Of a stretch of DNA of 41,043 nucleotides, positions 6,751 through 41,043 are shown one piece after another. The stretch covers positions 1 through 41,043 of the forward strand of contig QKGJ01000132.1 in the NCBI GenBank assembly GCA_003251275.1, in the 5' to 3' direction. The DNA is from Ignavibacteria bacterium (GTDB taxonomy: Bacteria; Bacteroidota; Ignavibacteria; UBA10030; UBA6906). Position 1 is the first letter of the stretch; each line of letters starts with the position of its first letter. The notes under the pieces are model-generated. The model was not told where the DNA came from. It saw nothing but the letters and a program-made list of their open reading frames with translations, and searched no databases. The translations under genes were made by a program, and so were the position numbers.

Positions 6751-6770
6751 GTTCCAACCTGTTGTTGTTT

Positions 6771-8413: not shown

Positions 8414-8522
8414 ACAGCAACACCCTCTCGTCCCAAGGGACTAGTCCCTCATTCATTCCATTGAGCTATTCATTCCAGTGACAATCGTCTCTACCTTAGT
8501 GCGATCAATGTAGGGGTGTCTG

Positions 8523-8819
8523 TTGTCAACAAAAAGGAAAGAACGCCTCCCTAGGGCGCCACAGTTACCAAAGACCGGCCGCAAACTTGCGGATGCTGCC
8601 AAGCTGCGTTCAGACGAAGCGGATAAGGAGATTTTGGCCTTGGTACGCAAGGGCGTCGAGAGCTTCATGCTTAAGAATGCCACCGTTGCAGACTTCTACA
8701 AGACCATAAAAGCTGTGGGAGAACAAGAGAAGATATACGCGCACTCGTTGACGAGATCAGTCTTTTCAAGAATTGTTAAAGAAGCGATAAGAAAGCGCAA
8801 TCGAGGACGATTGAAGTAA
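8523..8819 (+). CDS. Receiver-domain C-terminal fragment (alpha4-beta5-alpha5 plus linker); possible gene remnant or small decoy
   Basis: 98-aa ORF with a TTG start. Residues DKEILALVRKGVESFMLKNATVADFYKTIKAVGEQEKIYAHSLTRSVFSRIVKEAIRKRNRG align at about 24/62 identities (by eye) with QEELVQYVQAGVSGFVLKDATFNEFLRTIRSVAKGANVLPPLLTDSLFSQIVQYATHKKKGN of the upstream regulator. It lacks the acidic pocket, the phospho-acceptor Asp and the HTH. Confidence 0.4.
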   Translation: MSTKRKERLPRAPQLPKTGRKLADAAKLRSDEADKEILALVRKGVESFMLKNATVADFYKTIKAVGEQEKIYAHSLTRSVFSRIVKEAIRKRNRGRLK

Positions 8820-8849
8820 TTCTCAAAGGAACATTCCCTGGAGATCTCT

Positions 8850-10659: not shown

Positions 10660-10731
10660 CAGGTGAGGTAGTCATTGGGAAAGAATCGGTCGAGATGGGG
10701 CGCCATTTTATGAAGTGTGCCCATTGTATTG

Positions 10732-10804
10732 TGCCCCCAACCGGATTCGAACCGGTGTTACAAGCTTGAAAAGCTCGTGTCCTAGGCCTCTAGACGATGG
10801 GGGC
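10732..10804 (-). tRNA. tRNA-Glu (anticodon UUC)
   Basis: The reverse complement reads GCCCCCA-TC-GTCTAGAGGCCTAGGACA-CGAGC-TTTTCAA-GCTTG-TAACA-CCGGTTCGAATCCGG-TGGGGGC-A. The cloverleaf is near-identical in layout to E. coli tRNA-Glu, with anticodon loop U-U-UUC-A-A. CCA is not encoded. Confidence 0.9.
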
Positions 10805-10840
10805 GAACAAGGAAGAATTTCGAATGAGAAATGATGTCCG

Positions 10841-11206
10841 TTATCGGTTCACTTCTTTTGCTGCTTGAGCCGTTTTCCTTGACGTAACGAAAATCAAAAC
10901 CAGCTCGTCTCGCTCGCCATGGAGTCGGTTGAACTAATCGTCGCGGACCAGCTTCATTTCATGAAGAGTTCCAGCCAGTACTGGGTTTCGTGAGACTCCT
11001 CGACAACAATGGCAATTTTCGTTACAAGATTGGCCTTCGATCTTGCCCTACAAGCCGAACGATAATTGGCTCCAACGGAAGTTGCAGATCTAATGACTTG
11101 CCGGGAAATTATTTCTGCCGCCTGAGTCGAGGAAGATTGGCCAAGGCATCCATAACATCAAGTACAAATTTCTTGTTCTGTCCCTGAGTTCATCACCCTT
11201 CGCCAT
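10841..11206 (-). pseudogene. Decayed four-helix-bundle protein gene (23S rRNA intervening-sequence protein family, PF05635-like)
   Basis: The minus strand reads MAKGDELRDRTR (frame a), then KFVLDVMDALANLPRLRRQK* (frame b), then EIISRQVIRSATSVGANYRSACRARSKANLVTKIAIVVEESHETQYWLELFMK* (frame c). It then returns to frame a with KLVRDD*FNRLHGERDELVLIFVTSRKTAQAAKEVNR*. That is three -1 shifts (near 11171, 11115 and 10957) plus an in-frame TAG at 10934..10936. The SxTSxGANYR..xRARSKA...K..IV.EE..ET.YWLEL signature is characteristic of the family. No intact ORF of 60 aa or more exists on this strand. Confidence 0.75.
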
Positions 11207-11266
11207 ATCCTTCTCTCCGAGTCCATAGCTCAATCACCATTCAGAATTCCTCATTCCGCATTGCTG

Positions 11267-11340
11267 TGACCCCGCCGCGACTCGAACGCGGAACCTACAG
11301 CTTAGAAGGCTGTTGCTCTATCCAATTGAGCTACGGGGCC
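11267..11340 (-). tRNA. tRNA-Arg (anticodon UCU)
   Basis: The reverse complement reads GGCCCCG-TA-GCTCAATTGGATAGAGC-A-ACAGC-CTTCTAA-GCTGT-AGGTT-CCGCGTTCGAGTCGCGG-CGGGGTC-A. The anticodon loop is C-U-UCU-A-A. Confidence 0.9.
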
Positions 11341-11508
11341 GGCAAGTTAAGCAGGAATTTCATCACGATGGTTCAACTTTTCCCCGATTTCAAGAATCGG
11401 ACGAGAATATACGGGTTTTTGAATCCTGTTGCAATCCAGGAACCAAACTGCCCCTCGGTTCTCGAGAGGCAGCTGAAAAAACTCAAGACAACTATTTCGT
11501 GTCGGTTG

Positions 11509-11583
11509 TCGGGGCGACAGGATTCGAACCTGCGACTTCTTGCTCCCAAAGCAAGCGCTCTAGCCGGGCTGAGCTACGCCCCG
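11509..11583 (-). tRNA. tRNA-Pro (anticodon UGG)
   Basis: The reverse complement reads CGGGGCG-TA-GCTCAGCCCGGCTAGAGC-G-CTTGC-TTTGGGA-GCAAG-AAGTC-GCAGGTTCGAATCCTGT-CGCCCCG-A. The anticodon loop is U-U-UGG-G-A. Confidence 0.9.
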
Positions 11584-11638: not shown

Positions 11639-13390
11639 CTATCGCAGATAAACCATTTTCCTCGTTTCCACGAAATCACCGGCGCGGAGACGATAGAAGT
11701 ATGTTCCGCTTCCAAGACCCTCTGCGTTGACAAACGCTTCGTGCGTCCCTTCGACTCGATCTTCATTCACCAGAACATGTACCGCTCGCCCCAGCATATC
11801 ATAGAGAACAAGAGAGACGTGTTCCCGCGACGGAATGAAAAACGAAATCTTCGTCGAGTTGTTGAACGGGTTCGGATAGTTCTGACCAAGTTGTACTTTC
11901 GCAGGAAACGAAAGACCGCTTTCGACAGAGACCGGTGGGTTATTTGTGAAAAGAAAAATCAAATCGTCTACTTCATCAATACCAGTAAAATCAAGATCAC
12001 CGTCGTTGTCGCGATCATGAAGTGTTGCGCAGGATCCGGTGCTGGAGGAATTGAGCGTCCGTGGGTTGATGAATATTCCACTTCCGTCATTTTCATAGAC
12101 AGTCCATGAGGCTGAGGCGTAATTACTGGTGACAAGATCAAGATCTCCATCCCCATCGATGTCACCGAGATCGATGGCGATTGGAATTGATCCTGTAGGA
12201 TAAGTGACGGCTGTGTCGAGATGTCCCATTCCATCGCCGAACAGAACGGAAGCGTTATTAAAAGAATTGTTTGCTGATACGACGTCAACATTTCCGTCAC
12301 CATTCACGTCGCCAACCGCAATCATCCATGGTCTTCCTTTGGCTGGACGTTTGTGGGAGAAAACGAAGCTACCTTGGCCGTCGCCAAGCATCAGCGAGAT
12401 CTCATTGCTTCCGAATCCACCTACAAAAAGATCAAGAATCCCATCTCCATTTGCGTCCGCAGTTGCACATGCAGTTTCCTGGCTCACATTCGCTTCCAAG
12501 GTGTCTGTCGCTGTGAAGGAACCAGTTCCGTCATTGGAGAAGAGAATCACATTGCTCCCCGATCTATTCGCAGTGACAATATCCATATCCCCGTCCCCGT
12601 CCAGATCATCTATCGCAACACCCCGCACTTGCTGGGCAGCAGCATAGTTTGTGGGAGTTGTGAGATTTCCCATTCCATCCCCCATGAATATGGTTAGCTT
12701 GTTATTGCCCCCATTGCCAACTGCATAGTCAAGATGGCCATCACCATTGAAGTCAGCTCCCTCATTCGGACTTGGTGACGATCCTCCAGGCATAGGATAA
12801 ACTGCAAATGCACCATATGAACCAGCTCCATTATTAAGAAATAAACGAACATCCACTGAAATCTCGTTCGGTATGGCCAGATCCGAAAAGCCGTCCTCAT
12901 TAAAGTCGCCACCGTATGCTCCGTACGACTGGATACGACCTTCACCGGAACGACGGGTACTGATTGGAGGGGCCGACACAAAGTTAAATGATCCCGGTGC
13001 TGTTTGAATCCAAAACGTCCATGAGTACCCGTGAAGCATGGATTCTCCAGTCGTGTTCTGTAGGTTCTTGGAAAGAGTTACTGTTACGAGTTCCCCAGCT
13101 GAGAATGACCGCTGTGGCGAAAATCGCAACGTCATATTTCCATTCTCAAAAATCGTCAGCCCCTGCATAATTCCCGACCAATGACCGAAAACCATGAGAT
13201 CGGCACTCGAAAAAGAAGAAGGGTTTATCGGCTGATCAAATGTTGCCGTAATATCGGATGTCCCTTGTACGATAAGAGAATGAGAGGTTGGACTTACTGA
13301 ATTTACTACTGGTGCGGTTGCATGTAGTGAGGTGACACACGAGATGAGCAGCGCAACGCACAGAATGAAAGCGGGTTCATTTGATTTCAT
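11639..13390 (-). CDS. Secreted FG-GAP/VCBS (integrin-alpha-like) seven-repeat beta-propeller protein with an N-terminal Ig-like domain and T9SS CTD
   Basis: I place the start at ATG 13390 (GGAGGGG RBS), giving the signal peptide MKSNEPAFILCVALLISCVTSLHA. Seven Ca-binding-type repeats are present: FNEDGFSDL, FNGDGHLDYAVGN, DLDGDGDMDIVTAN, DANGDGILDLFVG, DVNGDGNVDVVSAN, DIDGDGDLDLVTSN, DRDNDGDLDF. The C-terminus is LGQNYPNPFNNSTKISFFIP...YFYRL. Confidence 0.85.
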   Translation of the reverse strand: MKSNEPAFILCVALLISCVTSLHATAPVVNSVSPTSHSLIVQGTSDITATFDQPINPSSFSSADLMVFGHWSGIMQGLTIFENGNMTLRFSPQRSFSAGELVTVTLSKNLQNTTGESMLHGYSWTFWIQTAPGSFNFVSAPPISTRRSGEGRIQSYGAYGGDFNEDGFSDLAIPNEISVDVRLFLNNGAGSYGAFAVYPMPGGSSPSPNEGADFNGDGHLDYAVGNGGNNKLTIFMGDGMGNLTTPTNYAAAQQVRGVAIDDLDGDGDMDIVTANRSGSNVILFSNDGTGSFTATDTLEANVSQETACATADANGDGILDLFVGGFGSNEISLMLGDGQGSFVFSHKRPAKGRPWMIAVGDVNGDGNVDVVSANNSFNNASVLFGDGMGHLDTAVTYPTGSIPIAIDLGDIDGDGDLDLVTSNYASASWTVYENDGSGIFINPRTLNSSSTGSCATLHDRDNDGDLDFTGIDEVDDLIFLFTNNPPVSVESGLSFPAKVQLGQNYPNPFNNSTKISFFIPSREHVSLVLYDMLGRAVHVLVNEDRVEGTHEAFVNAEGLGSGTYFYRLRAGDFVETRKMVYLR

Positions 13391-13614
13391 GATTGTGTCC
13401 CCTCCCTTACATCGGTCAATGTGTGATATTCGCCACCGGAAAGCCACTTCCATGATGTTGACACTTATAAGACTTTTGATTACCCTTTACATAACTGCAC
13501 GTGTATCTCACGTGAACCAATCCAAAGAGCATTGTATTGTCCTGGTGTCCTCACCCTGGCACGCTCACCATGAATATAGGCATTCCTCAATAGAGTTGAA
13601 AGGAAAGGTCGGTT

Positions 13615-27905: not shown

Positions 27906-29054
27906 ATGACTGAACCATTTGAATCAGTGTTGCTGAATCCGCCGAAAGAAGTTGATATTGTCGCGATTGAACGGGAACTGTCGGCCTTATGGAAGAAAGC
28001 GGCGGAGCCTGCGGCCGCGGATCAGGCGACCCCGGTCGTAAGAGCCTGTTCGCTCAACCTTATTGTCGTCTCTCGCGATCGTCAAGAGCTCGATTCTCTT
28101 GGCAACATTATAGGCGACGTCACGCTTGAGCATCCGGCTCGAACCTTTCTCATCGCTACGGATCGTACAGGCTCCTCAACCCTCGATTCGTGGATCTCGG
28201 CACGATGTTCACTTCCAGTAGCTGGCGGCAAGCAGGTCTGTTGTGAACAGATCAATCTTGTCGCAGGAGGAAATGAGATTGCAAAGGTCACGAGCATCGT
28301 TACGTCGCTGTTGGTGCCTGACGTGCCATCCGTGCTGGTATGGAGGGATACGGTAAGACCCAATGACCAGCTCTTCTCATCTCTATCGCGTGTGATGGAT
28401 CGCGTCGTGATGGATTCCGCACTTGAACGTGATCCGGAAAAAGCGCTTCGGATTTGGGAAAAAAACATTCGCGAGAGTGAAGGAAGGGCGTCATTCGGCG
28501 ACCTCGGCTGGACTCATTTGACTTCCATGCGCAATATGCTCGCGCACGTTTTTCAGCCACGCGAAATGCGACCTCACCTGCTTCAAATCGACTCATTGTC
28601 GATCACCTATTCTTCCTCTGCAAATCCATTTCACTCCGGATTGAGTCAGGCGATGTTACTGGTCGGCTGGCTTGCTCAACGAATGCGCTGGAGGCCCATT
28701 CATCAATTGAGGCGTACAGATGCCACGATGACCGCAAAGCTTCGATTTGATGAGATAGCAATTAATGTTCGACTCATTGAAGGTTCTCTCGTTGGACATT
28801 CCGGTGGACTCATCGGAGTCAACCTGCACACAACTTCGGGCATGGAAATATCTCTTGCTGCAACGGGATCGTCTCATTGTGTGATGTGTACGGTCAGTGA
28901 TGGAAAGATGAACCAGGAGGAAATGCTGACAACTGGTGAGGATTTGTCTGACTCGCTGCTTTTGGGGAGAGAGCTGGAAGTAATGCAGCGCGACAACCTG
29001 TACGAGGATGTGTTGAGAACGCTTCTTCCTCTTCTTGGAGAAAATCAGGGATGA
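27906..29054 (+). CDS. opcA: OpcA-like glucose-6-phosphate dehydrogenase assembly protein
   Basis: 382 aa. The N-terminal pattern VDIVAIERELSALWKK......PVVRACSLNLIVVS......LEHPARTFLI resembles OpcA of actinobacteria and cyanobacteria (from memory). The gene is translationally coupled (ATGA) to pgl. Confidence 0.6.
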   Translation: MTEPFESVLLNPPKEVDIVAIERELSALWKKAAEPAAADQATPVVRACSLNLIVVSRDRQELDSLGNIIGDVTLEHPARTFLIATDRTGSSTLDSWISARCSLPVAGGKQVCCEQINLVAGGNEIAKVTSIVTSLLVPDVPSVLVWRDTVRPNDQLFSSLSRVMDRVVMDSALERDPEKALRIWEKNIRESEGRASFGDLGWTHLTSMRNMLAHVFQPREMRPHLLQIDSLSITYSSSANPFHSGLSQAMLLVGWLAQRMRWRPIHQLRRTDATMTAKLRFDEIAINVRLIEGSLVGHSGGLIGVNLHTTSGMEISLAATGSSHCVMCTVSDGKMNQEEMLTTGEDLSDSLLLGRELEVMQRDNLYEDVLRTLLPLLGENQG

Positions 29055-29791
29055 AAGGTCGCCTGGAGGTATACGATACCCCGCACACGCTGGTGGAGGC
29101 GGTCGCAGTTCAGGTGCAGCAACTCCTGAGCCGGGCGGTTGCCGGTCGCGGTGCGGCATCGCTTGCCTTTTCAGGTGGGTCCACTCCCAGACATATATAT
29201 GAGCTCCTTGCGACGGATCGTTTTCGGGCGAAGATCGATTGGAATCGTGTTCATTGCTTTCTTGGTGATGAGCGCTGTGTGCCACCATTCCATCCTGAGA
29301 GTAATTTCCGGATGATCAGCGACGCCCTCCTCAATAAGATCACTATTCCCGACAAAAACGTTCACCGTGTCAAAACAGAACTCCCACCAGAAGAAGCTGC
29401 TGAGGCATATGAGAAAGAGATTCGAAATCTCTTCCAGCTCAAAACAGGGGAATTTCCCGAGTTCGACGTACTGCTGCTTGGCATGGGAGAAGATGGTCAT
29501 ACAGCGTCACTGTTTCCGGGCACTACGGCAGTTAACGAGACCGAGAAGCTTGCGACGGCCGTCCAGGGACCGACCGTGAAGATTCCGCGCGTGTCGCTTA
29601 CCTTTCCCACAATCAATCATGCTGCGGAGATTATCTTTATTGTTTCAGGAAAAGGCAAGGCAGCGATTCTCCAACAGGTCCTGAACGGAACCGTCATGAA
29701 CTACCCTGCGCAAATGGTCAATCCATTGAAGGGACGCTTGACATGGATGGTAGACCGCAACGCGACGATGCAATTAGAGGGAGTTCACTAG
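29051..29791 (+). CDS. pgl: 6-phosphogluconolactonase
   Basis: 246 aa. LAFSGGSTPRHIYELL and LLLGMGEDGHTASLFPG are the classical Pgl/NagB-family signatures. Confidence 0.9.
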   Translation: MKGRLEVYDTPHTLVEAVAVQVQQLLSRAVAGRGAASLAFSGGSTPRHIYELLATDRFRAKIDWNRVHCFLGDERCVPPFHPESNFRMISDALLNKITIPDKNVHRVKTELPPEEAAEAYEKEIRNLFQLKTGEFPEFDVLLLGMGEDGHTASLFPGTTAVNETEKLATAVQGPTVKIPRVSLTFPTINHAAEIIFIVSGKGKAAILQQVLNGTVMNYPAQMVNPLKGRLTWMVDRNATMQLEGVH

Positions 29792-29792
29792 T

Positions 29793-30782
29793 ATGATTCT
29801 TGCCGGTGATATTGGTGGGACCAAAACAAATCTTGCCTACTTTACCGCGGAATCGGGTAAACTGATTCGGAAACAATTACAAAGCTATCCCAGTCGCGAT
29901 TTCAAATCTCTCACCGATGTGTTGGCAAAATTCCAAGCCGACTTTCCTTCATCGGTCACGGCTGCTGCATTTGGTATTGCTGGACCAGTGGTGAACGGAC
30001 GGAGTAAGCTTACGAATCTTGGTTGGGATGTTATCGGTGCAGACGTTGCCTCACATTTGAGCCTGCCAGCAGTGGGTCTTCTGAATGATCTTGAGGCAAC
30101 TGCGTATGGAACGCTTCGTCTGGCCCCAAGCGAATATCTGGTTCTGAACAACGGCGTCGTCGCCGAAAAGGGGACAATAGCCGTGATTGCTGCTGGAACC
30201 GGTCTCGGGGAAGGTGGATTGCACTGGGACGGAAAGCGATACAGGACAATTGCATCTGAAGGGGGGCACACGGACTTCGGACCACGTGATGAAATCGAAA
30301 TCGATCTCCTCCGATTTCTAAAGCCGAAATACGGTCGGGTGAGTTATGAACGCGTTGTTGCTGGCCCGGCGATCACTGACGTGTATGACTTTCTTCGCAA
30401 ACGAAGCGGCGAGCCTGAACCGGAATGGCTCAAGCTGGCGCTTACCTCAGGGGATCCTTCTGCAGTGATATCGAAAGCGGGACTTGAAGGAAAGGATGCG
30501 GTGAGTGAACAAACCCTTGATCTCTTTGTTTCATTGTATGGAGCCGAAGCGGGCAATCTTGCATTGAAGATTCTTGCAACCGGTGGAGTGTTTGTTGGTG
30601 GAGGCATAGCACCCAAGATCCTCCCGAAAATCCAAAACGGTTCGTTCTTTTCCTCTTTTAAGAACAAGGGTCGCTATGAGGGACTCATGAAGAATATTCC
30701 GATTTGGATTGTCCTGAATGACCAGACCGCCCTTCTTGGTGCCGCACACTACGCCGAACTGATATTGACAGAGTCCTTGTAG
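29793..30782 (+). CDS. glk: Glucokinase
   Basis: 329 aa. It shows ILAGDIGGTKTNLAYF (phosphate-1 loop), GIAGPV, LLNDLEATAYG and GGVFVGGGIAPKI, matching the bacterial Glk family. Confidence 0.9.
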   Translation: MILAGDIGGTKTNLAYFTAESGKLIRKQLQSYPSRDFKSLTDVLAKFQADFPSSVTAAAFGIAGPVVNGRSKLTNLGWDVIGADVASHLSLPAVGLLNDLEATAYGTLRLAPSEYLVLNNGVVAEKGTIAVIAAGTGLGEGGLHWDGKRYRTIASEGGHTDFGPRDEIEIDLLRFLKPKYGRVSYERVVAGPAITDVYDFLRKRSGEPEPEWLKLALTSGDPSAVISKAGLEGKDAVSEQTLDLFVSLYGAEAGNLALKILATGGVFVGGGIAPKILPKIQNGSFFSSFKNKGRYEGLMKNIPIWIVLNDQTALLGAAHYAELILTESL

Positions 30783-31472: not shown

Positions 31473-31585
31473 TCCCATTCCAAAGGTCTCGGCTTCCCTG
31501 ACCGCTCGATTGCTCCCCATCAACACTTCCTTGTTATTCAAAATTGGATTGGGTATATTTTTCAGAAATATCAACAGGATTACTT

Positions 31586-33307
31586 GTGAATCGACTTGAA
31601 CTGAAGGCGTTGGCTATCGCCTTCATTGTTGCGATAATGTTTGGCGGATGCTCAACGTCAAAAAACGCGGCAACAGATCAGCCTCAAACAGCGCAAACAC
31701 AGGTAGATGAGCGTTCGCGCGATATCGCTCTTCAGCATTTCATCAACGGGTCGGTGCATGAATCGAATGGCGAGTATGCTGAAGCAATTCTCGAATTCCA
31801 GGATGCGCTACGCTATGATGAGAACGACGCAATCTATTTCGCTCTGGCAAAGAATTACTCTCTCCTCAATAAACACACCCTTGCAATTGAAGCAGGACGA
31901 AAGGCGATAGGGTTCTCTCCTGATAATCTGGACTATCGACGAACCTTGGCGGAAATCTACGTCCGGGCATTCGAGATCGACTCCGCAGCTGCGCAATATG
32001 CCCAGATTGTCCAGCGAGACTCTTCCAAGATTGAATCCTGGTATAATCTTGCACGTCTCTATCAGGGCCGCACCCCGCTGAAAGCCCTCGAAGTGTACGA
32101 AGCCATTGTGAACCGGTTTGGCCCGCAGTGGGATGTGTTGCTGCAAATGGCGGAACTGAATAATTCGCTGCAACAATATGGGAAGGCGGCCGAGGCGTTG
32201 CGGATGATGTCGGAGATAGACCCGAGCAACAATGAGCTCAAGCGATCTCTTGCACAGGCGTACACTCGGTCAGAACAGTATGAGAAGGCGCTCGAAATCT
32301 ACACCGGATTGCTGGAACTCCAGCCGGAGAACATCGAGTACATCGCGGAGGCGGCGGGAGTGTACCTGGTACGAAAGGAATATGAGCGCGCAGCTGAAAT
32401 GTTCGAGGGGATTCTCGCCCAGGATTCCGTGGTCGTGGATGCTAAACTAAGGATTGGCGAAATCTATTTCGGGCAGATGGAAAAAGACTCGACACTGGTT
32501 CCTCTGGCGCGTTCGATCTTTCTGCGAATTCGCGACAAGCATCCCGAAGATTGGCGCCCATACTGGTTCCTGGGGGCGATTGCAGCCCTGTCAAAAGAAG
32601 AAACAGTGGCAGTTGAAAATTTTCGAAAAGTGACGGAATTGGCAAGCTGGAACGCCGACGGATGGGTTTACCTTTCGTCTGTTTTTCTCGAGAAGAACAA
32701 TTATGAGGAAGTTGCCACCATCCTCGAATCTGCGGTGAAAGCAGTGCCCGAAGATTTTCGAGTAAATTTTTTCCTTGGCGTTGCACTTAATCGGTTGGGG
32801 AAGAACGAAGAGGCTGCCCGGTCTTTGGAAAGAGCGCGGGGAATCAACGGCGACGACATGGGAGCGCTTTCACAGCTGGCCCTGGTATATGACACTATGA
32901 AGAAGTTCGATGAGTCTGACCGGCTGTACGAAGAGGGATTGAAGAAAGAACCCGACAACCATCTCCTTCTGAACAATTACGCATACAGTCTTGCGGAACG
33001 AAATCTTCAGATCAACAGAGCTCTTGCAATGGCGAAGGAAGCCGTTGCCGCACAACCGGAGAACCCCTCGTATCTCGATACTATCGGGTGGATTTATTTC
33101 AAGCTTGGAGACTATGAAGAAGCGGAGAAAAACATCTCAAAGGCAGTTGCGCAGGGAGACGTGAGCGCCGTTGTTCATGAACACCTCGGCGATGTGTACT
33201 ACATGTTGCGGGATGCAGAGCGCGCATTGGAACAATGGAACATCTCGTTGAAGATTGACAGTAGTAACCAGGAATTGAAAGCCAAGATCGATCGCGGAAG
33301 GTTATGA
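31586..33307 (+). CDS. TPR-repeat lipoprotein
   Basis: The ORF opens at 31544 (TTG). I prefer the GTG at 31586, which gives VNRLELKALAIAFIVAIMFGGC with an FGGC lipobox. Multiple 34-aa TPR units follow (e.g. AEAILEFQDALRYDENDAIYFALAKNY). The start codon is uncertain. Confidence 0.8.
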   Translation: MNRLELKALAIAFIVAIMFGGCSTSKNAATDQPQTAQTQVDERSRDIALQHFINGSVHESNGEYAEAILEFQDALRYDENDAIYFALAKNYSLLNKHTLAIEAGRKAIGFSPDNLDYRRTLAEIYVRAFEIDSAAAQYAQIVQRDSSKIESWYNLARLYQGRTPLKALEVYEAIVNRFGPQWDVLLQMAELNNSLQQYGKAAEALRMMSEIDPSNNELKRSLAQAYTRSEQYEKALEIYTGLLELQPENIEYIAEAAGVYLVRKEYERAAEMFEGILAQDSVVVDAKLRIGEIYFGQMEKDSTLVPLARSIFLRIRDKHPEDWRPYWFLGAIAALSKEETVAVENFRKVTELASWNADGWVYLSSVFLEKNNYEEVATILESAVKAVPEDFRVNFFLGVALNRLGKNEEAARSLERARGINGDDMGALSQLALVYDTMKKFDESDRLYEEGLKKEPDNHLLLNNYAYSLAERNLQINRALAMAKEAVAAQPENPSYLDTIGWIYFKLGDYEEAEKNISKAVAQGDVSAVVHEHLGDVYYMLRDAERALEQWNISLKIDSSNQELKAKIDRGRL

Positions 33308-34080
33308 AACTAGACAAGAGTTGGTTGTCTCTGATCATAATTCTTTTCGTTCTCTCCTGTTCACCAAAACCAGTCTCGGTTCTCCTGGATACAGAGAGGA
33401 CGTCAGCGGCAACGTTAATCCGATTGGTGAATGCAAATGAACAGAAAATTCACACCCTTGTCGGGAGCGGACATATCACATTCGATACTCCCGAACTGAG
33501 CGGTACCGCCGCGTTCAGCATTACGATGAAGAAGCCCGACTCTCTTCTTGCTCTCTTTGAAGGCCCGTTCGGAATCGATCTGGGGACGCTCTTCCTTAGC
33601 AGGAATCGGTACCTCATTTATAACAGTTTTGAGAATACGGCGATCACCGGGATTCCAGGGTCGGAAACCTTAAAACTCGCCTTACCAATTGACCTGACAT
33701 ACGATGAGTTGTTGAGTGCCTTTTCGGGGACCATACAGCTGCCGGATGGCCAGAGTGATCTGGCGGGGTACGTGGTCGACGACGAGCAATTTCTTCTCAC
33801 CTATGATTGCGGAAATCTCGTCTGCAAATACTGGGTCGATGCGAGCTATTTGCTCGTAACATCACAACAGGTGTTGGATCAGAGCGGCCAGGTGATAATG
33901 GAGGTCAGGTTCTCGTCGATTCGGGAGCAGGATGCGATTCATGCACCGCGGCGTATCAGACTAAACTTTCCCGAGCGAGGGCGACAGGTGGCGCTCCAAT
34001 ACGGTTCTCTCACGTTGAATGAAGATGCCCCCTCGTTTCAGTTCTCTATTCCTTCCAATGCCCATGTGATCACGCGATGA
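33304..34080 (+). CDS. LolB-like/DUF4292-type outer-membrane lipoprotein
   Basis: 258 aa with the signal peptide plus lipobox MKLDKSWLSLIIILFVLSC. It is translationally coupled (ATGA) on both sides. Its position between a TPR protein and an M23 peptidase matches a conserved Bacteroidota arrangement (family call from memory). Confidence 0.6.
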   Translation: MKLDKSWLSLIIILFVLSCSPKPVSVLLDTERTSAATLIRLVNANEQKIHTLVGSGHITFDTPELSGTAAFSITMKKPDSLLALFEGPFGIDLGTLFLSRNRYLIYNSFENTAITGIPGSETLKLALPIDLTYDELLSAFSGTIQLPDGQSDLAGYVVDDEQFLLTYDCGNLVCKYWVDASYLLVTSQQVLDQSGQVIMEVRFSSIREQDAIHAPRRIRLNFPERGRQVALQYGSLTLNEDAPSFQFSIPSNAHVITR

Positions 34081-35282
34081 TTTTTTGGGCGCGAGTGACA
34101 GCTGCCGTGTTTCTTCTTGCGATGCTGGCGAACGGCATGCCGCGGACCCCACAACAGGAACTTGAAAAGCGGCAATCAGAACTTCAGGGTTTGCGCGACC
34201 AGATCAAGGCTCTCGAAATCAAGATGGATGAACAGCAGCGAAAGGAAACAGCGACACTGGAATTGCTCGATTCTTATGATAAGAAGGCTTCGCTTATCAA
34301 AACACTGCTGACAAGACTTCGTCGTGAAGAAAAAGTAATTCAAGCCAGTGTCGATTCCACCCGATCGGAGATGAATGTTCTCGAAGACCAACTTACCTTT
34401 TTAAAGGCACAGTATGCGAACTACGTCCGTTCGATGTATAAGTCGGGTCGCATGCACGAGATCGATCTCCTTCTCTCGTCGAATTCGATAAATCAATTCT
34501 ATGTCCGGGCTGAGTACTTTCGCCGTTTTGCCGACCAGAGAAGAGAAGATGCGCGCAGGATTGGAATGAAAAAGGCCGAGATTGGAGATATCCAGAACCG
34601 GCTGCAACTCCAGCTTGCAGAAGAACGGCGCTTGATTGCAGAGAAAGGAACAGAAGAAGACAGGCTGGCTCTATCGGTTTCAGAGAGGAAAGATATTCTT
34701 CAACGGATCCGAAAAGACCGGAAGTTGGTACAAAAACAAATGGACCGACAAATGAAAGCGGCGAAGGAGCTTGAGGGCCTCATTGAGAATCTCATCGTTG
34801 CAGATAAGATGAGAAAAGACAAGGAGGCCGAAGAGGTAAGCAAGGGTGTGTTTCCACAACCTCCCCTGGTGACTGGAGCCTTTGAATCAAGGAAAGGTCA
34901 ACTGCGATGGCCGGTGACGAAGGGCGCCGTGGTGGCGAAGTTTGGCAACCAACGACATCCGACACTCGGAACCGTCACGCAGAACAATGGCGTAGATATC
35001 GCGGTGGAAAGCGGCTCTCAAGTGACGGCGGTTGCGGAAGGAGAAGTATCGGCAATAACTTGGCTCCCGTCCTATGGCAACGTTATCATCATAAATCATT
35101 ACAACGGGTATCGGACGGTGGCGACACACCTTGCACAGATTTTTGTCGTGGTCGGACAAAAGGTCTTTGAAGGAACTCCGCTGGGGGAAAGCGGGGAATC
35201 GCTGGAAGGTCCCCGGGTTCATTTCGAAATCTGGAAGGACCGCGAAAAACAAAACCCTGAAGTCTGGCTTGCCAAGCAATGA
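34077..35282 (+). CDS. Coiled-coil M23 peptidase-domain protein (EnvC-like murein hydrolase activator)
   Basis: 401 aa with a signal peptide and a roughly 230-aa coiled coil. The LytM/M23 domain is GVDIAVESGSQVTAVAEGEVSAI...GNVIIINHYNGYRTVATHL...GPRVHFEIW. Confidence 0.85.
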   Translation: MIFWARVTAAVFLLAMLANGMPRTPQQELEKRQSELQGLRDQIKALEIKMDEQQRKETATLELLDSYDKKASLIKTLLTRLRREEKVIQASVDSTRSEMNVLEDQLTFLKAQYANYVRSMYKSGRMHEIDLLLSSNSINQFYVRAEYFRRFADQRREDARRIGMKKAEIGDIQNRLQLQLAEERRLIAEKGTEEDRLALSVSERKDILQRIRKDRKLVQKQMDRQMKAAKELEGLIENLIVADKMRKDKEAEEVSKGVFPQPPLVTGAFESRKGQLRWPVTKGAVVAKFGNQRHPTLGTVTQNNGVDIAVESGSQVTAVAEGEVSAITWLPSYGNVIIINHYNGYRTVATHLAQIFVVVGQKVFEGTPLGESGESLEGPRVHFEIWKDREKQNPEVWLAKQ

Positions 35283-37837
35283 AGCCGCAACGTTTTCTTC
35301 TCCCCGCTCTCTTCACCATTCCGACCGTTCTTCTGGTTGTGTTCCTCCGCGGTCCACTCGAATCCATAGAGAGTGGTTTCACTGACTGGAAGTATCAGTG
35401 GAGAGGCGAGCGGTTGGCCGATACAAACATCGTCATCATTTACAATGATGATAATGCCGTGAAGGCGCTCGGCGGAACGATTCGTCGTAATTTCTACTCC
35501 CTGATGGTCAAGGCACTCACGGACCTCAAAGTCAAAGCGATTGGCATCGATGTTTTTTTCGATTCTGCGGATCCGGTCTATCCCGAGTACGATGATCTAT
35601 TGGCAAGGATGATTGGCAACTCCGGGAAGGTTGTTCTGCCGTCCTATTTCAAACTTGTCGGCGGTCCTGATCAGGACGGTATTCTCCGAGGCGAGGAATA
35701 TCATCCGCCTTTTGCAAGGATTGCTGAACATGCCGCCTTGATTGGCCATGAAAACCTGGGTGAACACTTTGAGGTTCCGGTGGTCATCCGGATAGGTGAC
35801 TCACTCGTTCCGGCGTTCGGTTTTCAATTGTTAAACCTCTATGCCGGTGGACCGCATTCTTTTGCGTCACTTGTTGCCCAGGGGAATGTCCGGCTCAATT
35901 ATCCGGGCCGCATGACTTCATTTACTTCTTACCCATTTCTCGAAGTGCTGAAATCGTACGACGCACTCCGTCGCGATGAGCCAACGAATATTCCAGTTAG
36001 ATCACTGAAGGATAAGATAATCCTTGTCGGAGTTGTTGGCGACGGTACGGGCAAGCTTTTTGAAACACCGTTTGACAGAAGGTTTCCTGCCTTGGGAATT
36101 CATGCGGTGTTTATCGATAACGCTCTCCAGGGAACATTTATCAGCGACGTGGGTTTTCCGATCTTGCTCGTTGTCGCGTTCCTGGTAGGCGTGCTTTGTG
36201 CGATTTCCGTTTTGTTCTTTCCTTCACCACGCAGCCGTATTCTTGCATTCGTGGTTTTGGTCTTTCCTGTCCTTCTTTCCATAATTCTCTTTTCCTGGTG
36301 GAACACGATTCTGCCGATTGGCCCGATCTTTTTGGTTGGACTTGTCTCCCTTGGCGCATCATTCTTCTACAAACATAGGTTGGTGCGCGCCCAGGTTGAT
36401 TCCTTAACCGTGGAACGAATTGAAATCATAAACCAGCTAAAGGACCGGGAAGCGAAGGTTGCATTGCTTGAAAAGGAGTTGCTTGACATTTCACACGTCC
36501 GGACGGCTGACCGGACGACAGAGTTGCTGGAGGAGATTCGACGGCACAAAGCTGAAATAAAGACCCTTTCGTCACGAGCCGATGATATGGAAGTCTTTGA
36601 AGAGACGGAACAAGGGTATTCGCGGGAGATGGCAACGTTCGAAGAACTGGTCTACTCTCCCGCAGGGGCCCTGAAAAACGTGATTGAGTTCATCCAGAAG
36701 ATTGTTGCCAGCGACGCGCCGGTTCTCATCCTTGGAGAAAGTGGAACGGGCAAAGAGCTCGTCGCCAAGGCAATTCACCGTCGCAGCGAGAGAAAAGAAA
36801 ACCCATTCATTGCGTTGAACTGCGGAGCGCTCTCTGAAAGCCTGCTCGAAAGCGAGTTATTTGGGCATGAAAAGGGAGCGTTCACCGGCGCGGTAAAAGA
36901 TAAGATGGGTCGTTTTGAGTTGGCCGATGGAGGAACCATCTTTCTGGACGAGATCGGCGAGGTGAGTGAAGCATTTCAATTGCGTCTCCTCCGCGTTCTG
37001 CAAGAAGGAGAGTTCGAAAGAGTAGGAGGGACTAAGACAATTAAGGTGCAAGTTCGCGTTCTTGCTGCGACAAACAAAGATCTGAAAGAACAGGTGAGAG
37101 TCAAGAAGTTTCGTGAGGACCTGTACTACCGCTTGAACGTCTTTAGTATCGACCTGCCTCCTCTTCGCGATCGGCAAGAGGATATTCCTCTTTTGGTGCG
37201 ATATTTTCTCGGTAGAGAAGACGGCAGCTTGAAAGTTTCAAAAAACGTGATGGACTCATTCACTAATTATTCGTGGCCGGGAAATATCAGGGAATTGGAG
37301 AGCGTAATTCGGAGGGCGGCCCTGCTCGCAAGGGCGGAAAAGCGTACCATGGTGAACATGAAAGATCTCACCGAAGACCTTGTGCAGGCAGTTCAGGGTT
37401 CGATTGCAATTGAAGAACAGATCCTTGAATCCGTTCGCGAAAAGGGGTTTTCGCGGAGTTCGGTCTCAGAAACCGCAAATGAACTTGGTGGACTGAACCG
37501 CGGGACGGTGGCAGAATACTTGCGCGGGCAGTGTCTTCAAGCGTTCACCGAGCAGGGTTTTGACGTTGAGCGAGCGGTGCAGCACATCTCCCTTACCGCT
37601 GACCAGGAGGTCAACATGCGGGTACGGAAAAAACTTCTCGATTACATCAATAATATCAGTGAAGCGGTAGATACCGCCCAGCCTTGGGAGGCAGCGCGGG
37701 TCGGGCTTAAACCGAAGACGAAGAATCTGCCTCAACGGTATCATCCCTATCTCGAAAAGACGGCGGAAGCTCTTTATCGAGGCGTCATAAAACGCACGAG
37801 CCGGTTGCCGCAGAGTTCCGATGACGAAAGCGCCTGA
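35279..37837 (+). CDS. Membrane-anchored sigma-54-dependent transcriptional activator with an N-terminal CHASE2 sensor domain
   Basis: 852 aa. After an N-terminal TM helix comes a CHASE2-like region ([21 protein letters not shown]...[14 protein letters not shown]). Three TM helices span residues about 290-370, followed by a coiled coil. The AAA+ sigma-54 interaction domain has Walker A ([10 protein letters not shown]), an intact GAFTGA loop (EKGAFTGA), Walker B ([11 protein letters not shown]) and the R-finger region. A weak HTH lies at the C-terminus ([19 protein letters not shown]). Confidence 0.85.
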
Positions 37838-37846
37838 TTAATTCTC

Positions 37847-37875
37847 TTCCTGCACACTACCTTTTTTTCCCGCAG
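37847..37875 (+). promoter_or_regulatory. Candidate upstream activator sequence 1 (TTCCTGC-N15-CCCGCAG)
   Basis: TTCCTGCACACTACCTTTTTTTCCCGCAG. It shares the 12-mer TTTTTCCCGCAG and the left arm TTCCTGC with the site at 39115..39144. It ends 101 nt upstream of the -24 GG. Confidence 0.4.
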
Positions 37876-37974
37876 TATTGTTCAGTGGATTCTCCTCCGA
37901 ACCCGTGTGGAGCCGACTGATAAGTTCTTCGTTTGAAACATGTTAGGCGGTGCTTGAAGGTTGCCGCAAACCTC

Positions 37975-37990
37975 TGGCATGATGATTGGG
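37975..37990 (+). promoter_or_regulatory. Sigma-54-type -24/-12 promoter (imperfect -12) for lipoprotein paralog A
   Basis: TGGCATGATGATTGGG compared with the consensus TGGCACGrNNNTTGCW. The spacing is correct, and -12 reads TTGG instead of TTGC. It lies 57 nt upstream of ATG 38047. Confidence 0.5.
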
Positions 37991-38046
37991 ATATACCTCT
38001 CCAGCAAGAATAATCACATTTCATTTACATATATCAGGAGAGGATC

Positions 38047-39021
38047 ATGAAAGCCTTACACGCGTTGTTTGCCATTCTTGCGTTCGCAGGAATCGCCATC
38101 ACTGGATGTACGAAGGACGTAACTGCACCGGAGAATGAGCAGGCTCCGGCCGGAGTTACAAACGAAATCGAGTCGATGAAGCTCATGGCATCTCAGGATG
38201 CATTTGTCCAGAACGATGAGCTGACCTTCGAGGATCGCGAGATCGAACCGATGGAGACGGGAACATTCGGCAAGATTGAAGCCGAGATCACTCCACTGCG
38301 GTTCGGTAGATTCATTAACAGCGTGACAACGACAATAACCGCCACCATAGCACCTGGAGACAGCCTTGCGGTCGCTCACGTGCAAAAAGATATTGAGGGG
38401 ATTTTCAAAATCAAAGCTATAAATGGGGTTGGAGATACAGTGTTGGTGGAAAAACCATTTGAAGATCGAGCGACACGAAATGTTATCTTTAAACGTATAC
38501 ACCGCGATAATGCCCGATTTTGGAGAAACTGGATTCCCGTTGCAACATCTTTGGTTGATGGTGGCACGGTCTCAAATAGTCCCAGCCAAATTGACTTAAC
38601 AAAGCTGCAAATGTTCCTTCCGAACGGCGACACAGTGACGGTGACGGATCCGAACAGCTTCTACTTGCGCTACCGGTGGTTGCGCTTGTTTGATGGAGGA
38701 AGACTGGACATCCCGGAATTGAGAGGGGGCGATCGCGTGATTCTGCAGGCAACATTGGTAAGTGCATCTCCCGATACCGATTTCGTCGCGCTTCGTTTGG
38801 GATATGGACTGGGAAACCACCGTAGAACCCGGATGGAACTCGTCTCAGATGTCGACAACGGGGATGGAACATTTACTCGTGTGTACCAAAAAGCCTGGTT
38901 CTGTCATTTCCATACTGGATTCTTCCATGCAGGCGTTGTCGCAGTAACGAAGGAAACTCTCTTTGACGATTCGGCCCCCTATGCTGCGAGCTGGTGGGGG
39001 ATTCCTTATCGTGTGTTCTAG
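38047..39021 (+). CDS. Lipoprotein of unknown function, paralog A
   Basis: 324 aa. The signal peptide plus lipobox is MKALHALFAILAFAGIAITGC, and a GGAGAGGA RBS precedes the start. It is collinear with 39338..40330 at roughly 60% identity (by eye), including EQAPAGVTNE, AEITPLRFGRF, INGVGDTV, RNW(I/V)PVATSLVDGGT, FLPNGDT(V/I)TVTDPNS(F/Y)YLRYRWLR and the C-terminal WWGIPYRVF. Confidence 0.8.
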   Translation: MKALHALFAILAFAGIAITGCTKDVTAPENEQAPAGVTNEIESMKLMASQDAFVQNDELTFEDREIEPMETGTFGKIEAEITPLRFGRFINSVTTTITATIAPGDSLAVAHVQKDIEGIFKIKAINGVGDTVLVEKPFEDRATRNVIFKRIHRDNARFWRNWIPVATSLVDGGTVSNSPSQIDLTKLQMFLPNGDTVTVTDPNSFYLRYRWLRLFDGGRLDIPELRGGDRVILQATLVSASPDTDFVALRLGYGLGNHRRTRMELVSDVDNGDGTFTRVYQKAWFCHFHTGFFHAGVVAVTKETLFDDSAPYAASWWGIPYRVF

Positions 39022-39046: not shown

Positions 39047-39075
39047 GAAGCCCGCCTTTGAAGCGGGCTTCTTGC
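39047..39075 (+). terminator. Rho-independent terminator after paralog A
   Basis: GAAGCCCGC-CTTTGAA-GCGGGCTTC followed by TTG. The T-tract is weak. Confidence 0.6.
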
Positions 39076-39114: not shown

Positions 39115-39144
39115 TTCCTGCGATCGAAGAGATTTTTCCCGCAG
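39115..39144 (+). promoter_or_regulatory. Candidate upstream activator sequence 2 (TTCCTGC-N16-CCCGCAG)
   Basis: TTCCTGCGATCGAAGAGATTTTTCCCGCAG. CTGCG and CGCAG form an inverted repeat. It ends 99 nt upstream of the -24 GG. Confidence 0.4.
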
Positions 39145-39241
39145 CTTTGCTCTTGGCAGAGCACCGTTAACCCCTGCCTCACCGATCGTAACTGCCCACT
39201 GGAAAAGGAGTTATAGAAAGAGCCTTCCACGAGCCCGATGA

Positions 39242-39257
39242 TGGCATGGGCATTGCC
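39242..39257 (+). promoter_or_regulatory. Sigma-54-type -24/-12 promoter for lipoprotein paralog B
   Basis: TGGCATGGGCATTGCC compared with the consensus TGGCACGrNNNTTGCW. GG and GC sit at the exact canonical spacing. It lies 81 nt upstream of ATG 39338. Confidence 0.65.
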
Positions 39258-39337
39258 GTTTTCAATGTGGTAGGGAAGAAAACGCAAAAGAAAGTAGTCA
39301 CAAAACAACATAATCAACAACACAGAGGGGTAACACA

Positions 39338-40330
39338 ATGAAAAAACAACTCGAAATCCTGTTCGGATTTGCGCTGATCGCAGGAATCATGTTGACTGGG
39401 TGTAAGGACAGCGCCGGTCCAGTTGACGATGAGCAGGCGCCAGCAGGTGTTACTAACGAAATGGATGCGATGAAATACTTCGCACTTCAGGATGAGTTTG
39501 TGAAGAATACGGAAGAAACAATCTCAGACGACAATCTCTATCCGGCAGATTACGGAACCTTCGGGAAGGTCACCGCGGAAATCACCCCGCTCCGGTTTGG
39601 TAGGTTTGTCACGAGCGTTACACGGACGGCAACGCCGACTATTCTTCCTGGTGATTCCATTGCAATCGTTCTTGTGGAAAAGGAAATCATGGGATTGTTC
39701 AAGATTCGTGGAATTAACGGGGTTGGGGATACAGTGACCATCGAAAAACCGTTCACTGATAATAGTACGCGTAACCTAGTCTTCAAACGAATAGATCGGG
39801 ACTCTCGGAGGTATTGGAGAAATTGGGTTCCTGTTGCCACGTCTCTTGTTGACGGAGGAACGGCTACGCCAAACGATAATATCGACATCACGATGGTTCA
39901 GCTCTTTCTTCCAAACGGTGATACGATTACCGTAACAGATCCGAACAGTTACTACCTCCGGTATCGTTGGCTGCGAATGTATGATGGTGGACGGAAGGAC
40001 GTTCCAGAGTTCTCCGCAAATCAACGGGCGATTCTCCAGGCCACCGTCGTGAGCGCTTCCGCTGATACGGATTTCGTGGCGTTGCGCTATGGTGTAGGCA
40101 CATTCCAGAAGCGCCGGATGAGATTGGCTCTCGTTTCGGAAGTGAACAATGGTGACGGCACGTATACCCGCGTCTATCAAACCAGGGATGGTGGTATGCC
40201 AGGGTTCGTCATTCATCCTCACAGAGGCTGGTTCCATGCCGCCGTGGATGCAATGACGCGCGAAACTCTGTATGACGATACAGCGCCGTACTCGGTCAAT
40301 TGGTGGGGAATACCTTATAGGGTGTTCTAA
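39338..40330 (+). CDS. Lipoprotein of unknown function, paralog B
   Basis: 330 aa. The signal peptide plus lipobox is MKKQLEILFGFALIAGIMLTGC, and an AGAGGGG RBS precedes the start. It is a paralog of 38047..39021. Confidence 0.8.
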   Translation: MKKQLEILFGFALIAGIMLTGCKDSAGPVDDEQAPAGVTNEMDAMKYFALQDEFVKNTEETISDDNLYPADYGTFGKVTAEITPLRFGRFVTSVTRTATPTILPGDSIAIVLVEKEIMGLFKIRGINGVGDTVTIEKPFTDNSTRNLVFKRIDRDSRRYWRNWVPVATSLVDGGTATPNDNIDITMVQLFLPNGDTITVTDPNSYYLRYRWLRMYDGGRKDVPEFSANQRAILQATVVSASADTDFVALRYGVGTFQKRRMRLALVSEVNNGDGTYTRVYQTRDGGMPGFVIHPHRGWFHAAVDAMTRETLYDDTAPYSVNWWGIPYRVF

Positions 40331-40423: not shown

Positions 40424-41043
40424 ATGATTAAGAAGAGACAAATACTCATTGCCCTCCTTCTGGGAGCGCTGCATGCAGGATGTGAGAAGCCCGGTCCCGT
40501 GGAGATCACTCCAATTGATCCCGATGATGTTCTGCTTGTCGAACAAATCGATCAAACACATCCTCAGTTTGACGGTCAGTCGGTCGACTCAACCGGCTTT
40601 CCGGCTTCATCATTATTTTCCTTCGCAGGATATTTTCTTGTTAATCATGTTTCGATCGATCGTGGTCAGGGAATTCGGTCATTTGCCTATTCCGCTGTGT
40701 TGCTTGCAGACAGAAATCGGCCAATATCGTGTGGTGATCAACGCATCCGCGGATATCATGGGATCTTTATTCCTTCGCTCAGCCTGAACGGTCAACCCAT
40801 GGTGATACTGCCGCATGTAATCCGCAACTGTGCAGACACAGTACAAGCTGGCTTCGAGTATTTGCTCGATCTCTCCTCCAACTATCAGCCAAATTCTCGT
40901 TATCGATGGGGGTTCCGATCGTTGGTCGGAGATTCGCTCAGCCTTGAGGTGAACACTCCGGACGCACTCACATTGCTCCGCCCCGCTGGAGGTTCTGTGC
41001 AGGGAAGAAATCAGATGATGCCGATTGAGTGGACAGGGATGGG
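40424..41043 (+). CDS. Lipoprotein of unknown function, 3'-truncated by the window edge (absent from the supplied ORF track)
   Basis: My own translation from ATG 40424 gives MIKKRQILIALLLGALHAGCEKPGPVEITPIDPDD... with an LHAGC lipobox. The frame stays open for 206 codons to the end of the window. A GAGGTGGGA lies about 25 nt upstream. Confidence 0.55.
   Translation, partial: MIKKRQILIALLLGALHAGCEKPGPVEITPIDPDDVLLVEQIDQTHPQFDGQSVDSTGFPASSLFSFAGYFLVNHVSIDRGQGIRSFAYSAVLLADRNRPISCGDQRIRGYHGIFIPSLSLNGQPMVILPHVIRNCADTVQAGFEYLLDLSSNYQPNSRYRWGFRSLVGDSLSLEVNTPDALTLLRPAGGSVQGRNQMMPIEWTGM

Follow-up and report, generated by a model that had tools for sequence, protein, structure and literature searches.

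A stretch of 41,043 nucleotides from contig QKGJ01000132.1 of an Ignavibacteria bacterium (assembly GCA_003251275.1, positions 1 to 41,043, forward strand; this whole stretch is referred to below as the window) encodes an 852-residue bacterial enhancer-binding protein (EBP) in which the sigma-54-interacting AAA+ domain follows an extracytoplasmic CHASE2 sensor, a predicted set of four transmembrane (TM) helices and a coiled coil. The architecture is conserved across a large family, the gene keeps the same neighbors in its relatives, and it is followed by a conserved pair of direct repeats and a sigma-54-type promoter that lies before a lipoprotein gene. We consider it probable that this protein is a one-component, membrane-integral EBP acting on the neighboring sigma-54 lipoprotein promoter. 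An earlier reading of the same DNA (the original prediction) had proposed a one-component transmembrane sigma-54 switch from the protein architecture, and that proposal now gains support, at the level of sequence, from the conserved repeat pair, the -24/-12 promoter and the co-inherited lipoprotein gene. The features of the gene and its product are listed here; the TM and coiled-coil limits come from hydropathy and heptad analysis and are approximate.

35279..37837, + strand: CHASE2-EBP gene, 852 aa, ATG start, final gene of a four-gene operon-like unit
35291..35347, + strand: TM1, aa ~5-23, N-terminus predicted cytoplasmic (K2, R5), Kyte-Doolittle (window 19) peak 2.16
35327..36190, + strand: CHASE2 extracytoplasmic sensor domain, aa 17-304 (PF05226)
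36155..36367, + strand: hydrophobic block fitting TM2-TM4, aa ~293-363, hydropathy peaks 3.13, 2.96 and 2.03
36368..36643, + strand: charged coiled-coil/signaling linker, aa ~364-455, from heptad and charge analysis, with many invariant columns
36665..37396, + strand: sigma-54 interaction AAA+ domain and lid, aa 463-706, with Walker A, GAFTGA and Walker B
37409..37780, + strand: family-specific C-terminal helical module, aa ~711-834, comprising a diverged helix-turn-helix (HTH, aa ~713-750) and an extension of ~85 aa

In Pfam searches CHASE2 (PF05226) matches aa 17-304 with an E-value of 3.3e-30 and 105.9 bits against a curated cut-off of 26.3, and Sigma54_activat (PF00158) matches aa 463-624 with an E-value of 4.9e-72 and 241.5 bits against a curated cut-off of 20.2, followed by AAA_lid_14 (PF25601) at aa 630-706 (66 bits). 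Read from the translation, Walker A occupies aa 484-493, GAFTGA aa 533-538 and Walker B aa 551-561 including DEIGE, and the corresponding columns are invariant or at least 90% conserved in an alignment of 20 homologues. The protein therefore carries what marks an EBP core, a PF00158 match above threshold with intact Walker A, Walker B and GAFTGA motifs; a cognate -24/-12 promoter with an upstream enhancer, described below, is present as far as sequence alone can tell. It reaches no NCBIfam equivalog cut-off, the best being NifA (377 vs 529 bits). The CHASE2 class is marked in turn by the PF05226 match and by one TM helix predicted before the domain and three after it, from hydropathy and the positive-inside pattern. 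The N-terminal hydrophobic segment recurs in 19 of the 20 aligned homologues, the sole exception being N-terminally truncated, and the 70-residue hydrophobic block fits three helices and is followed by a cytoplasmic KHRLVR; a basic cluster follows the last TM helix in all 20. The predicted topology is N-in, CHASE2-out, C-in, as is typical of CHASE2 proteins. The original prediction had named a CHASE2-like N-terminal domain, four TM helices arranged as 1+3, a coiled coil before the AAA+ core and an intact core with the quoted motifs, and each of these agrees with the profile matches, the translation, the hydropathy pattern that recurs in the homologues, or the heptad and charge analysis.

The linker between membrane and motor is 41% charged over aa 364-455, with 64-70% hydrophobic residues at the a/d positions of aa 364-411, and its invariant columns in the homologue alignment include E379, L387, E391, E398, T413, E426 and D436. 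Its conservation, seen for example in RDREAKVAxLERELLD...DRTxELLEEIRKYKAEI, is far above what a simple spacer would need, which suggests that it makes a specific regulatory contact.

This design is not peculiar to the window. The best 120 database homologues (50-85% identity, 838-901 aa) all combine CHASE2, Sigma54_activat and AAA_lid_14; where their sources are named, they are uncultured Ignavibacteria, Ignavibacteriae, Bacteroidota and candidate division KSB1 genomes. When 1.84 billion representatives were searched with a profile built from the final ~150 residues, the C-terminal module turned up in 258 clusters at 50% identity, 155 of them with E ≤ 1e-10; nearly all full-length carriers measure 790-910 aa and bear the module at the very end of the chain, and among ten divergent carriers CHASE2 was found in all ten and the sigma-54 AAA+ domain in nine. 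Mis-assembly or a chance fusion as the origin of the protein is excluded because more than 250 independent clusters have the same architecture, and we interpret the series CHASE2, three TM helices, coiled coil, AAA+ domain and C-terminal module as the constant plan of a single coherent family, which comprises at least 258 clusters. A homology search with the CHASE2 and TM region alone returned one fragment, hydrophobic words having probably swamped the selection of candidates. In a 707-aa family member (P0244), CHASE2, lid and C-terminal module are all present but Sigma54_activat gives no match; this protein is either a natural AAA+-deleted variant or an error of assembly or gene calling.

The family is already in the databases under generic names ('sigma 54-interacting transcriptional regulator' or 'CHASE2 domain-containing sensor protein'), and the protein itself is no discovery. 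By the terms of the original prediction, an architecture that proved to be a common and already characterized EBP class would have counted against it; common the architecture is, but the family is uncharacterized in the open-access literature, where we found no paper pairing CHASE2 with sigma-54 or an EBP and none describing a membrane-integral EBP. Surveys of EBPs and sigma-54 (PMC6615313, PMC4641369, PMC3162934) do not report membrane-integral EBPs. Three features of this variant appear unusual: it is predicted to be integral to the membrane, its C-terminal module is new, and a candidate enhancer made of direct repeats lies right beside the gene.

The region downstream of the EBP gene carries two units, each consisting of a candidate enhancer or upstream activating sequence (UAS), a sigma-54-type promoter and a lipoprotein gene.

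37847..37874, + strand: candidate UAS 1, TTCCTGCA at 37847 and TTCCCGCA at 37867, direct repeats 20 bp apart
37975..37989, + strand: sigma-54-type promoter 1, TGGCATGATGATTGG, -24 GG at 37976-77, -12 GG instead of GC
38047..39021, + strand: lipoprotein A1, 324 aa, lipobox ...ITGC, predicted target gene
39047..39071, + strand: stem-loop after lipoprotein A1, GAAGCCCGC...GCGGGCTTC, RNAfold -18.6 kcal/mol
39115..39143, + strand: candidate UAS 2, TTCCTGCG at 39115 and TTCCCGCA at 39136, direct repeats 21 bp apart
39242..39256, + strand: sigma-54-type promoter 2, TGGCATGGGCATTGC, -24 GG at 39243-44, -12 GC at 39255-56
39338..40330, + strand: lipoprotein A2, 330 aa, tandem paralogue of A1 with 61% identity
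40336..40379, + strand: terminator-like strong stem-loop with a T-rich tract, RNAfold -29.7 kcal/mol
40424..41041, + strand: lipoprotein B, truncated where the window stops, matching L002:11017-11895 at 33% identity (E 2e-26)

Candidate UAS 1 begins 10 nt past the EBP stop codon, in the 210-nt gap that separates the EBP gene from lipoprotein A1; promoter 1 lies 57 nt before the A1 ATG at 38047, and promoter 2 lies 81 nt before the A2 ATG at 39338. The first comparison was with four relatives of 52-60% identity (L001-L004). A TGGCA(C/T)-N5-xTTG(C/G) element stands 56-86 nt before the lipoprotein A start in the window, L002 and L004; L003 has a TTGA variant of the -12 part and L001 has no clear element. 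Copies of TYCCCGCA lie further upstream in all five regions. To extend the comparison, 80 family loci were fetched from metagenomes with the C-terminal module as a specific probe, and 73 of these have at least 300 nt after the EBP stop, which is the set behind the locus counts below. The -24/-12 element TGGCAY-N5-(T)TTG(C/A/G) is present in 53/73 loci, with a pattern density after the EBP stop ~188-fold that elsewhere in the same loci, and YCCCGCA on the coding strand after the stop in 60/73. The strict pair YCCCGCA-N14-YCCCGCA occurs within 300 nt of the stop in 43/73 loci; three occur on the two strands of the other 427 kb of these loci, and none in 839 kb around unrelated EBPs (the controls are 80 generic EBPs of many phyla, taken by full-length alignment from a contig scan with universal AAA+ peptides). 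When one variable base and spacings of 20-22 bp are allowed, the pair is found in 59/73 loci, against a background of 0.005 per 300 nt. One apparent match, L054, seemed to extend through residue 844 and was rejected as a composite match to an ordinary 466-aa EBP.

The geometry is as constant as the motifs. The histogram of repeat spacing has a sharp peak, with 43 of 62 pairs at exactly 21 bp, and the extended consensus of the pair across the family is TTCCCGCACTTC. Ten loci have the first repeat beginning 11 nt past the stop codon, in most loci it begins no more than ~80 nt past it, and the distance from the second repeat to the -24 TGG is either 90 bp or 102-108 bp. Both units of the window match this family geometry, a repeat pair followed about 90-108 bp on by a -24/-12 element, and unit 2 is nearer the family consensus than unit 1. 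Counted over the whole window, the motifs are not enriched: TGGCAC-N5-TTGCW with two mismatches gives 17 matches against 17.7 expected in shuffles, and TYCCCGCA alone gives 3 against 3.5. The putative regulatory signal is one of position, pairing, spacing and conservation across loci, not of counts in the window. Autoregulation of the EBP operon was considered and rejected, as the DNA ahead of the operon in the window shows neither a repeat pair nor a sigma-54-type element.

The lipoprotein gene follows the same pattern of inheritance. Lipoprotein A stands next to the EBP in 58/73 loci, of which 56 have the repeat pair and 51 the promoter, while 12 of the 15 loci without it have neither pair nor promoter (Fisher p = 2e-9 for the pair and 7e-8 for the promoter). 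The original prediction had asked if the architecture always sits beside the same lipoprotein family; it does so in these 58 loci and not in the other 15. Lipoprotein A1 has no match in Pfam or NCBIfam, and its 327 homologous clusters, all named 'hypothetical', occur in the lineages that carry the EBP, in many cases on a contig shared with it. The model of lipoprotein A is beta-rich and confident (predicted local distance difference test, pLDDT, 85.7), and a fold search returned no significant neighbor, only a generic Ig-like beta-sandwich resemblance (RbmA, RhoGDI/NPC2, Wzt). Lipoprotein B is the orthologue of the second downstream gene in the related loci.

The repeat pair, the -24/-12 element and the lipoprotein A gene are tandemly duplicated in the window, as 37847-39021 and 39115-40330, and the duplicated lipoprotein gene has kept its own repeat pair and promoter. 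Two copies of the unit were found in none of the 73 related loci, and the duplication of enhancer, promoter and gene appears specific to this window. The stem-loop after A1 is a possible terminator with a poor T-tract that the terminator scan did not call; in the stronger one after A2, the inverted repeat 40338-40353/40362-40377 is 94% complementary. Beyond the window end, the relatives have a third downstream gene (L002:11920-13932 and its equivalents in L001 and L003) whose product of ~650-670 aa has a marginal match to a transglutaminase-like core (24.6 vs 23 bits).

The candidate reader of the repeats is the C-terminal module. In the alignments the last ~145 residues of the EBP are among the best conserved parts of the family, and the C-terminal extension has invariant R781, Y789, N792, P802, K813, K815, N816, L817 and H822 and a near-invariant 13-residue motif. 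The AlphaFold2 model of the module is compact, helical and confident (pLDDT 87.8, predicted template modeling score 0.79). No Pfam family was found for it, and a Foldseek search of the PDB with the model gave no significant neighbor (best E 1.2, TM-score ≤ 0.3). An HTH_8 domain (PF02954) is typical of EBPs, not obligatory. Of the Pfam families that the original prediction had named for its scan, CHASE2 and Sigma54_activat are there and HTH_8 is not: it gave no match in the window protein at E ≤ 0.1, none in 20 members scanned at E ≤ 10, and none in the precomputed Pfam lists of the best 120 homologues. A profile-profile comparison (hhalign) with the C-termini of 79 ordinary EBPs places the HTH in register with the Fis-type HTH, weakly (P 0.0016, probability 16%), and by sequence the best match of the module among solved structures is the HTH of TetR-family proteins (PDB 4mxm/4mo7, E about 2e-3), aligned over the TetR N-terminal HTH and the next helix. 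A TetR identity was rejected: TetR_N appears in one of 20 members at E 0.039, and the Foldseek matches to TetR have E > 1 and TM-scores ≤ 0.3. A diverged EBP HTH accounts no less well for the hhalign register and for where the module stands in the chain, and this reading is favored because the module sits right after the AAA+ lid. We read the weak TetR match as a local HTH resemblance that establishes membership of neither HTH_8 nor TetR_N, and the module is most economically read as an EBP HTH that has diverged strongly and gained an extension specific to the family. The 'weak, atypical HTH' of the original prediction is indeed atypical, with no HTH_8 match, but it is not a decayed remnant; it belongs to a strongly conserved, family-specific module of ~125 aa.

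One divergent member, L157 (L157:853-1183), has an altered HTH recognition helix (LGGMHRGTVAEHFRG). At its enhancer position stands a different repeat, with ATTCCGGCAGTAC present twice 22 bp apart and one inverted copy, 110 nt upstream of the -24/-12 element. The joint change of helix and repeat, in this single lineage, hints at a possible protein-DNA co-variation.

The protein would bind DNA and respond to a signal, it may be active while membrane-bound, and the following mechanism would connect these properties. CHASE2 would sense a periplasmic or envelope cue, which the TM bundle and coiled coil would relay to control assembly of the AAA+ ring and its ATPase activity. The C-terminal module would bind the repeat pair, whose members would lie on the same DNA face because they are two helical turns apart, and the ~100-bp spacer would loop so that the GAFTGA loops meet the sigma-54 holoenzyme at the neighboring promoter. 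ATP hydrolysis would then open the promoter and turn on lipoprotein A (two copies in the window) and probably the downstream envelope proteins too. Because the enhancer begins only 10-165 nt past the EBP stop, co-translational membrane insertion may deliver the EBP to its target, holding the locus near the membrane so that the tethered activator meets its own site; the linker of ~90 residues would give it further reach. In its full detail, with the EBP active while still membrane-embedded, 4-TM protomers forming the ring, an undescribed module reading repeats in a 21-bp register, and cis-coupled transertion, this mechanism is one that we put forward only tentatively; action while still tethered seems to us less likely than the overall model.

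The genes upstream of the EBP bear both on what the system might do and on how it might be activated. Three co-oriented genes with overlapping stops and starts precede it (31544..35282, + strand), and the EBP start codon overlaps the stop of the last by 4 nt.

31544-33307, + strand: TPR lipoprotein, first of the four-gene unit
33304-34080, + strand: DUF4292/LolB1-like protein, second of the four-gene unit
34077-35282, + strand: EnvC-like coiled-coil protein with degenerate LytM (M23 family) domain, third of the four-gene unit

The order TPR, LolB, EnvC, EBP is kept in the four relatives L001-L004, and the M23/EnvC-like gene lies directly upstream of the EBP in all 30 loci whose sequence reaches far enough to show it. 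EnvC, as known from FtsEX-EnvC structures, can be aligned with the M23-family protein along the entire length of the latter, which is predicted to be an EnvC-like amidase activator, not a peptidase, because the first His of both zinc motifs is lost (NNGVD, RVH); no ftsEX was seen adjoining it. The DUF4292 protein scores above the cut-off of the NCBIfam model for LolB1, the outer-membrane lipoprotein insertase of Flavobacterium (67.6 vs 50 bits), and is co-operonic with the TPR lipoprotein, EnvC-like and EBP genes in all relatives examined. The LolB-like and EnvC-like operon partners and the lipoprotein targets suggest that the output may be remodeling of the envelope or surface, which would agree with an earlier suggestion that the bacterial exterior is under sigma-54 control (PMC3162934).

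A gene of a protease family in the same operon, in 30/30 loci, invites the explanation that the membrane form is an inactive precursor and that a cut in or after the TM block frees a soluble EBP consisting of coiled coil, AAA+ domain and HTH. The cytoplasmic part (aa ~364-852) holds everything that a soluble EBP needs, and such a cut, for which we saw no direct support, would remove the geometric problem posed by a hexamer of 4-TM protomers. However, the operon partner is EnvC-like with both zinc-binding motifs degenerate and is itself an unlikely protease, and the conserved neighborhood (L001-L004) holds no site-2 protease or similar enzyme. Few parts of the protein are as well conserved as the linker, as would be expected more of a segment that transmits a signal than of a tether to be discarded, and a freely diffusing activator would not need an enhancer adjoining the 3' end of its own gene. 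We regard regulated proteolysis as unlikely.

It is also conceivable that the EBP activates from the membrane without binding DNA, the TTCCCGCA repeats being bound by another factor and the C-terminal module serving oligomerization or partner binding. Functional EBPs without a DNA-binding domain are known in Helicobacter FlgR and Chlamydia CtcC, which gives this explanation a precedent, and the module falls under all HTH family thresholds and has no structural neighbor. Yet its HTH-like segment is in register with both the EBP HTHs and the TetR HTH, the repeats co-occur with the EBP and are essentially absent elsewhere, L157 alters helix and repeat together, and no other regulator is conserved in the neighborhood of L001-L004 that could take over the repeats. 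An EBP that leaves its enhancer to another protein thus seems a decidedly poor bet.

Least probable by our estimate, and very unlikely, is that the -24/-12 element and repeats are kept for another reason, as an RNA or terminator element, with read-through or a housekeeping promoter accounting for the expression of lipoprotein A and the EBP targets elsewhere: the window has no terminator between the EBP gene and lipoprotein A, a sigma-70-like match overlaps promoter 1, and in the divergent members L148, L150, L153 and L161 the element is absent and another gene lies downstream, but the conserved positions are exactly the sigma-54 consensus (TGGCA-N6-TTG, with invariant GG and G), the repeats keep a fixed upstream distance and helical phasing, neither they nor the -24/-12 element form a hairpin, no Rfam family matches at the elements, and the duplicated lipoprotein gene carries its own copy.

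Several points weigh against the membrane-integral EBP acting on its neighboring promoter. The HTH lies under every curated family threshold, its similarity to HTH_8 (16%) and TetR_N (E 2e-3) being weak, and the match of module to repeats is drawn from co-occurrence and one case of co-variation (n = 1). A hexamer of 4-TM protomers that engages looped DNA poses a geometric problem. Unit 1 is degenerate, with a repeat spacing of 20 bp instead of 21 and a -12 GG instead of GC, and the sigma-70-like match TTGGGA-17-AATAAT (37986-38014) overlaps its promoter. The lipoprotein gives no functional clue beyond its generic beta-sandwich fold. Finally, rpoN is not among the genes of the 41-kb window, and a search of open-access text for rpoN in Ignavibacteria returned nothing relevant.

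Set beside classical EBPs (the NtrC, NifA, PspF and DmpR/XylR class), the window protein shares the Sigma54_activat core with Walker A/B, GAFTGA and lid, a C-terminal HTH in the usual position, and an enhancer ~100 bp from a -24/-12 promoter. It differs in its input, which is an extracytoplasmic CHASE2 domain with four TM helices in place of soluble REC, GAF, PAS or V4R domains, in its DNA-binding end, which is the family-specific module of ~125 aa that fails HTH_8, and in its enhancer, which consists of direct repeats in a 21-bp register whereas the classical enhancers are inverted repeats. With the CHASE2 receptors (histidine kinases, adenylate and diguanylate cyclases, Ser/Thr kinases) it has the topology of one TM helix, CHASE2 and three TM helices in common; the output there is a kinase or cyclase and here a transcription-activating AAA+ ATPase.

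A functional parallel is with ToxR and CadC, in which one polypeptide likewise unites an extracytoplasmic sensor, a membrane anchor and a cytoplasmic activating part, the target promoter adjoins the regulator gene, and the tethered factor must find its DNA. In the case of cadC, the target operon cadBA adjoins the regulator gene. Those proteins have an N-terminal winged helix of the OmpR type, one TM helix and a C-terminal periplasmic sensor and act at sigma-70 promoters, whereas here the domain order is reversed, there are four TM helices and an ATP-driven AAA+ ring would act on sigma-54. No homology to ToxR/CadC was detected, with no match to Trans_reg_C or a related Pfam family in the window EBP; the protein is predicted to work like this class and is not a member of it.

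Some other genes of the window may be recorded here. OpcA (glucose-6-phosphate dehydrogenase assembly protein), 6-phosphogluconolactonase and glucokinase are encoded in a row at 27906-30782, and they also lie upstream of the four-gene unit in L001, not in L002-L004. Genes for a radical SAM protein (4682-6673), a response regulator with REC and LuxR-type domains (7763-8413) and a protein with a B12-binding domain (8850-10415) lie close together at 4682-10415. Two type IX secretion cargo proteins with Por_Secre_tail are encoded at 2566-4338 (+) and 11639-13453 (-), one with beta-propeller repeats and the other with FG-GAP and Big_5 domains, and on sequence grounds this cargo places the organism in the Bacteroidota/Ignavibacteria (FCB) group. 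A tRNA cluster at 10731-11583 (-), with Glu-TTC, Arg-TCT and Pro-TGG, holds the sole Rfam matches in the window.

EBPs are commonly treated as soluble proteins that are signaled to indirectly, by kinases or small ligands. If the interpretation offered here is true, a large family wires an outward-facing sensor straight to the sigma-54 AAA+ motor, which would be a new signaling route. It would then have to be explained how rings can form in two dimensions, in what way a DNA loop reaches the membrane and by what means a tethered activator locates its target. With the predicted enhancer, promoter and target gene all within ~250 bp of the regulator, the system is an unusually tractable case. It would provide a readable output for the poorly understood CHASE2 domain. 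Should the EBP act while still membrane-embedded, as tentatively proposed above, this would be the first functional output and regulon for CHASE2 in the FCB superphylum, and transcription at the membrane would depend on an enhancer coupled in cis through transertion. Through its LolB-like and EnvC-like partners and its lipoprotein targets, it would also be a further link of sigma-54 to control of the cell envelope.

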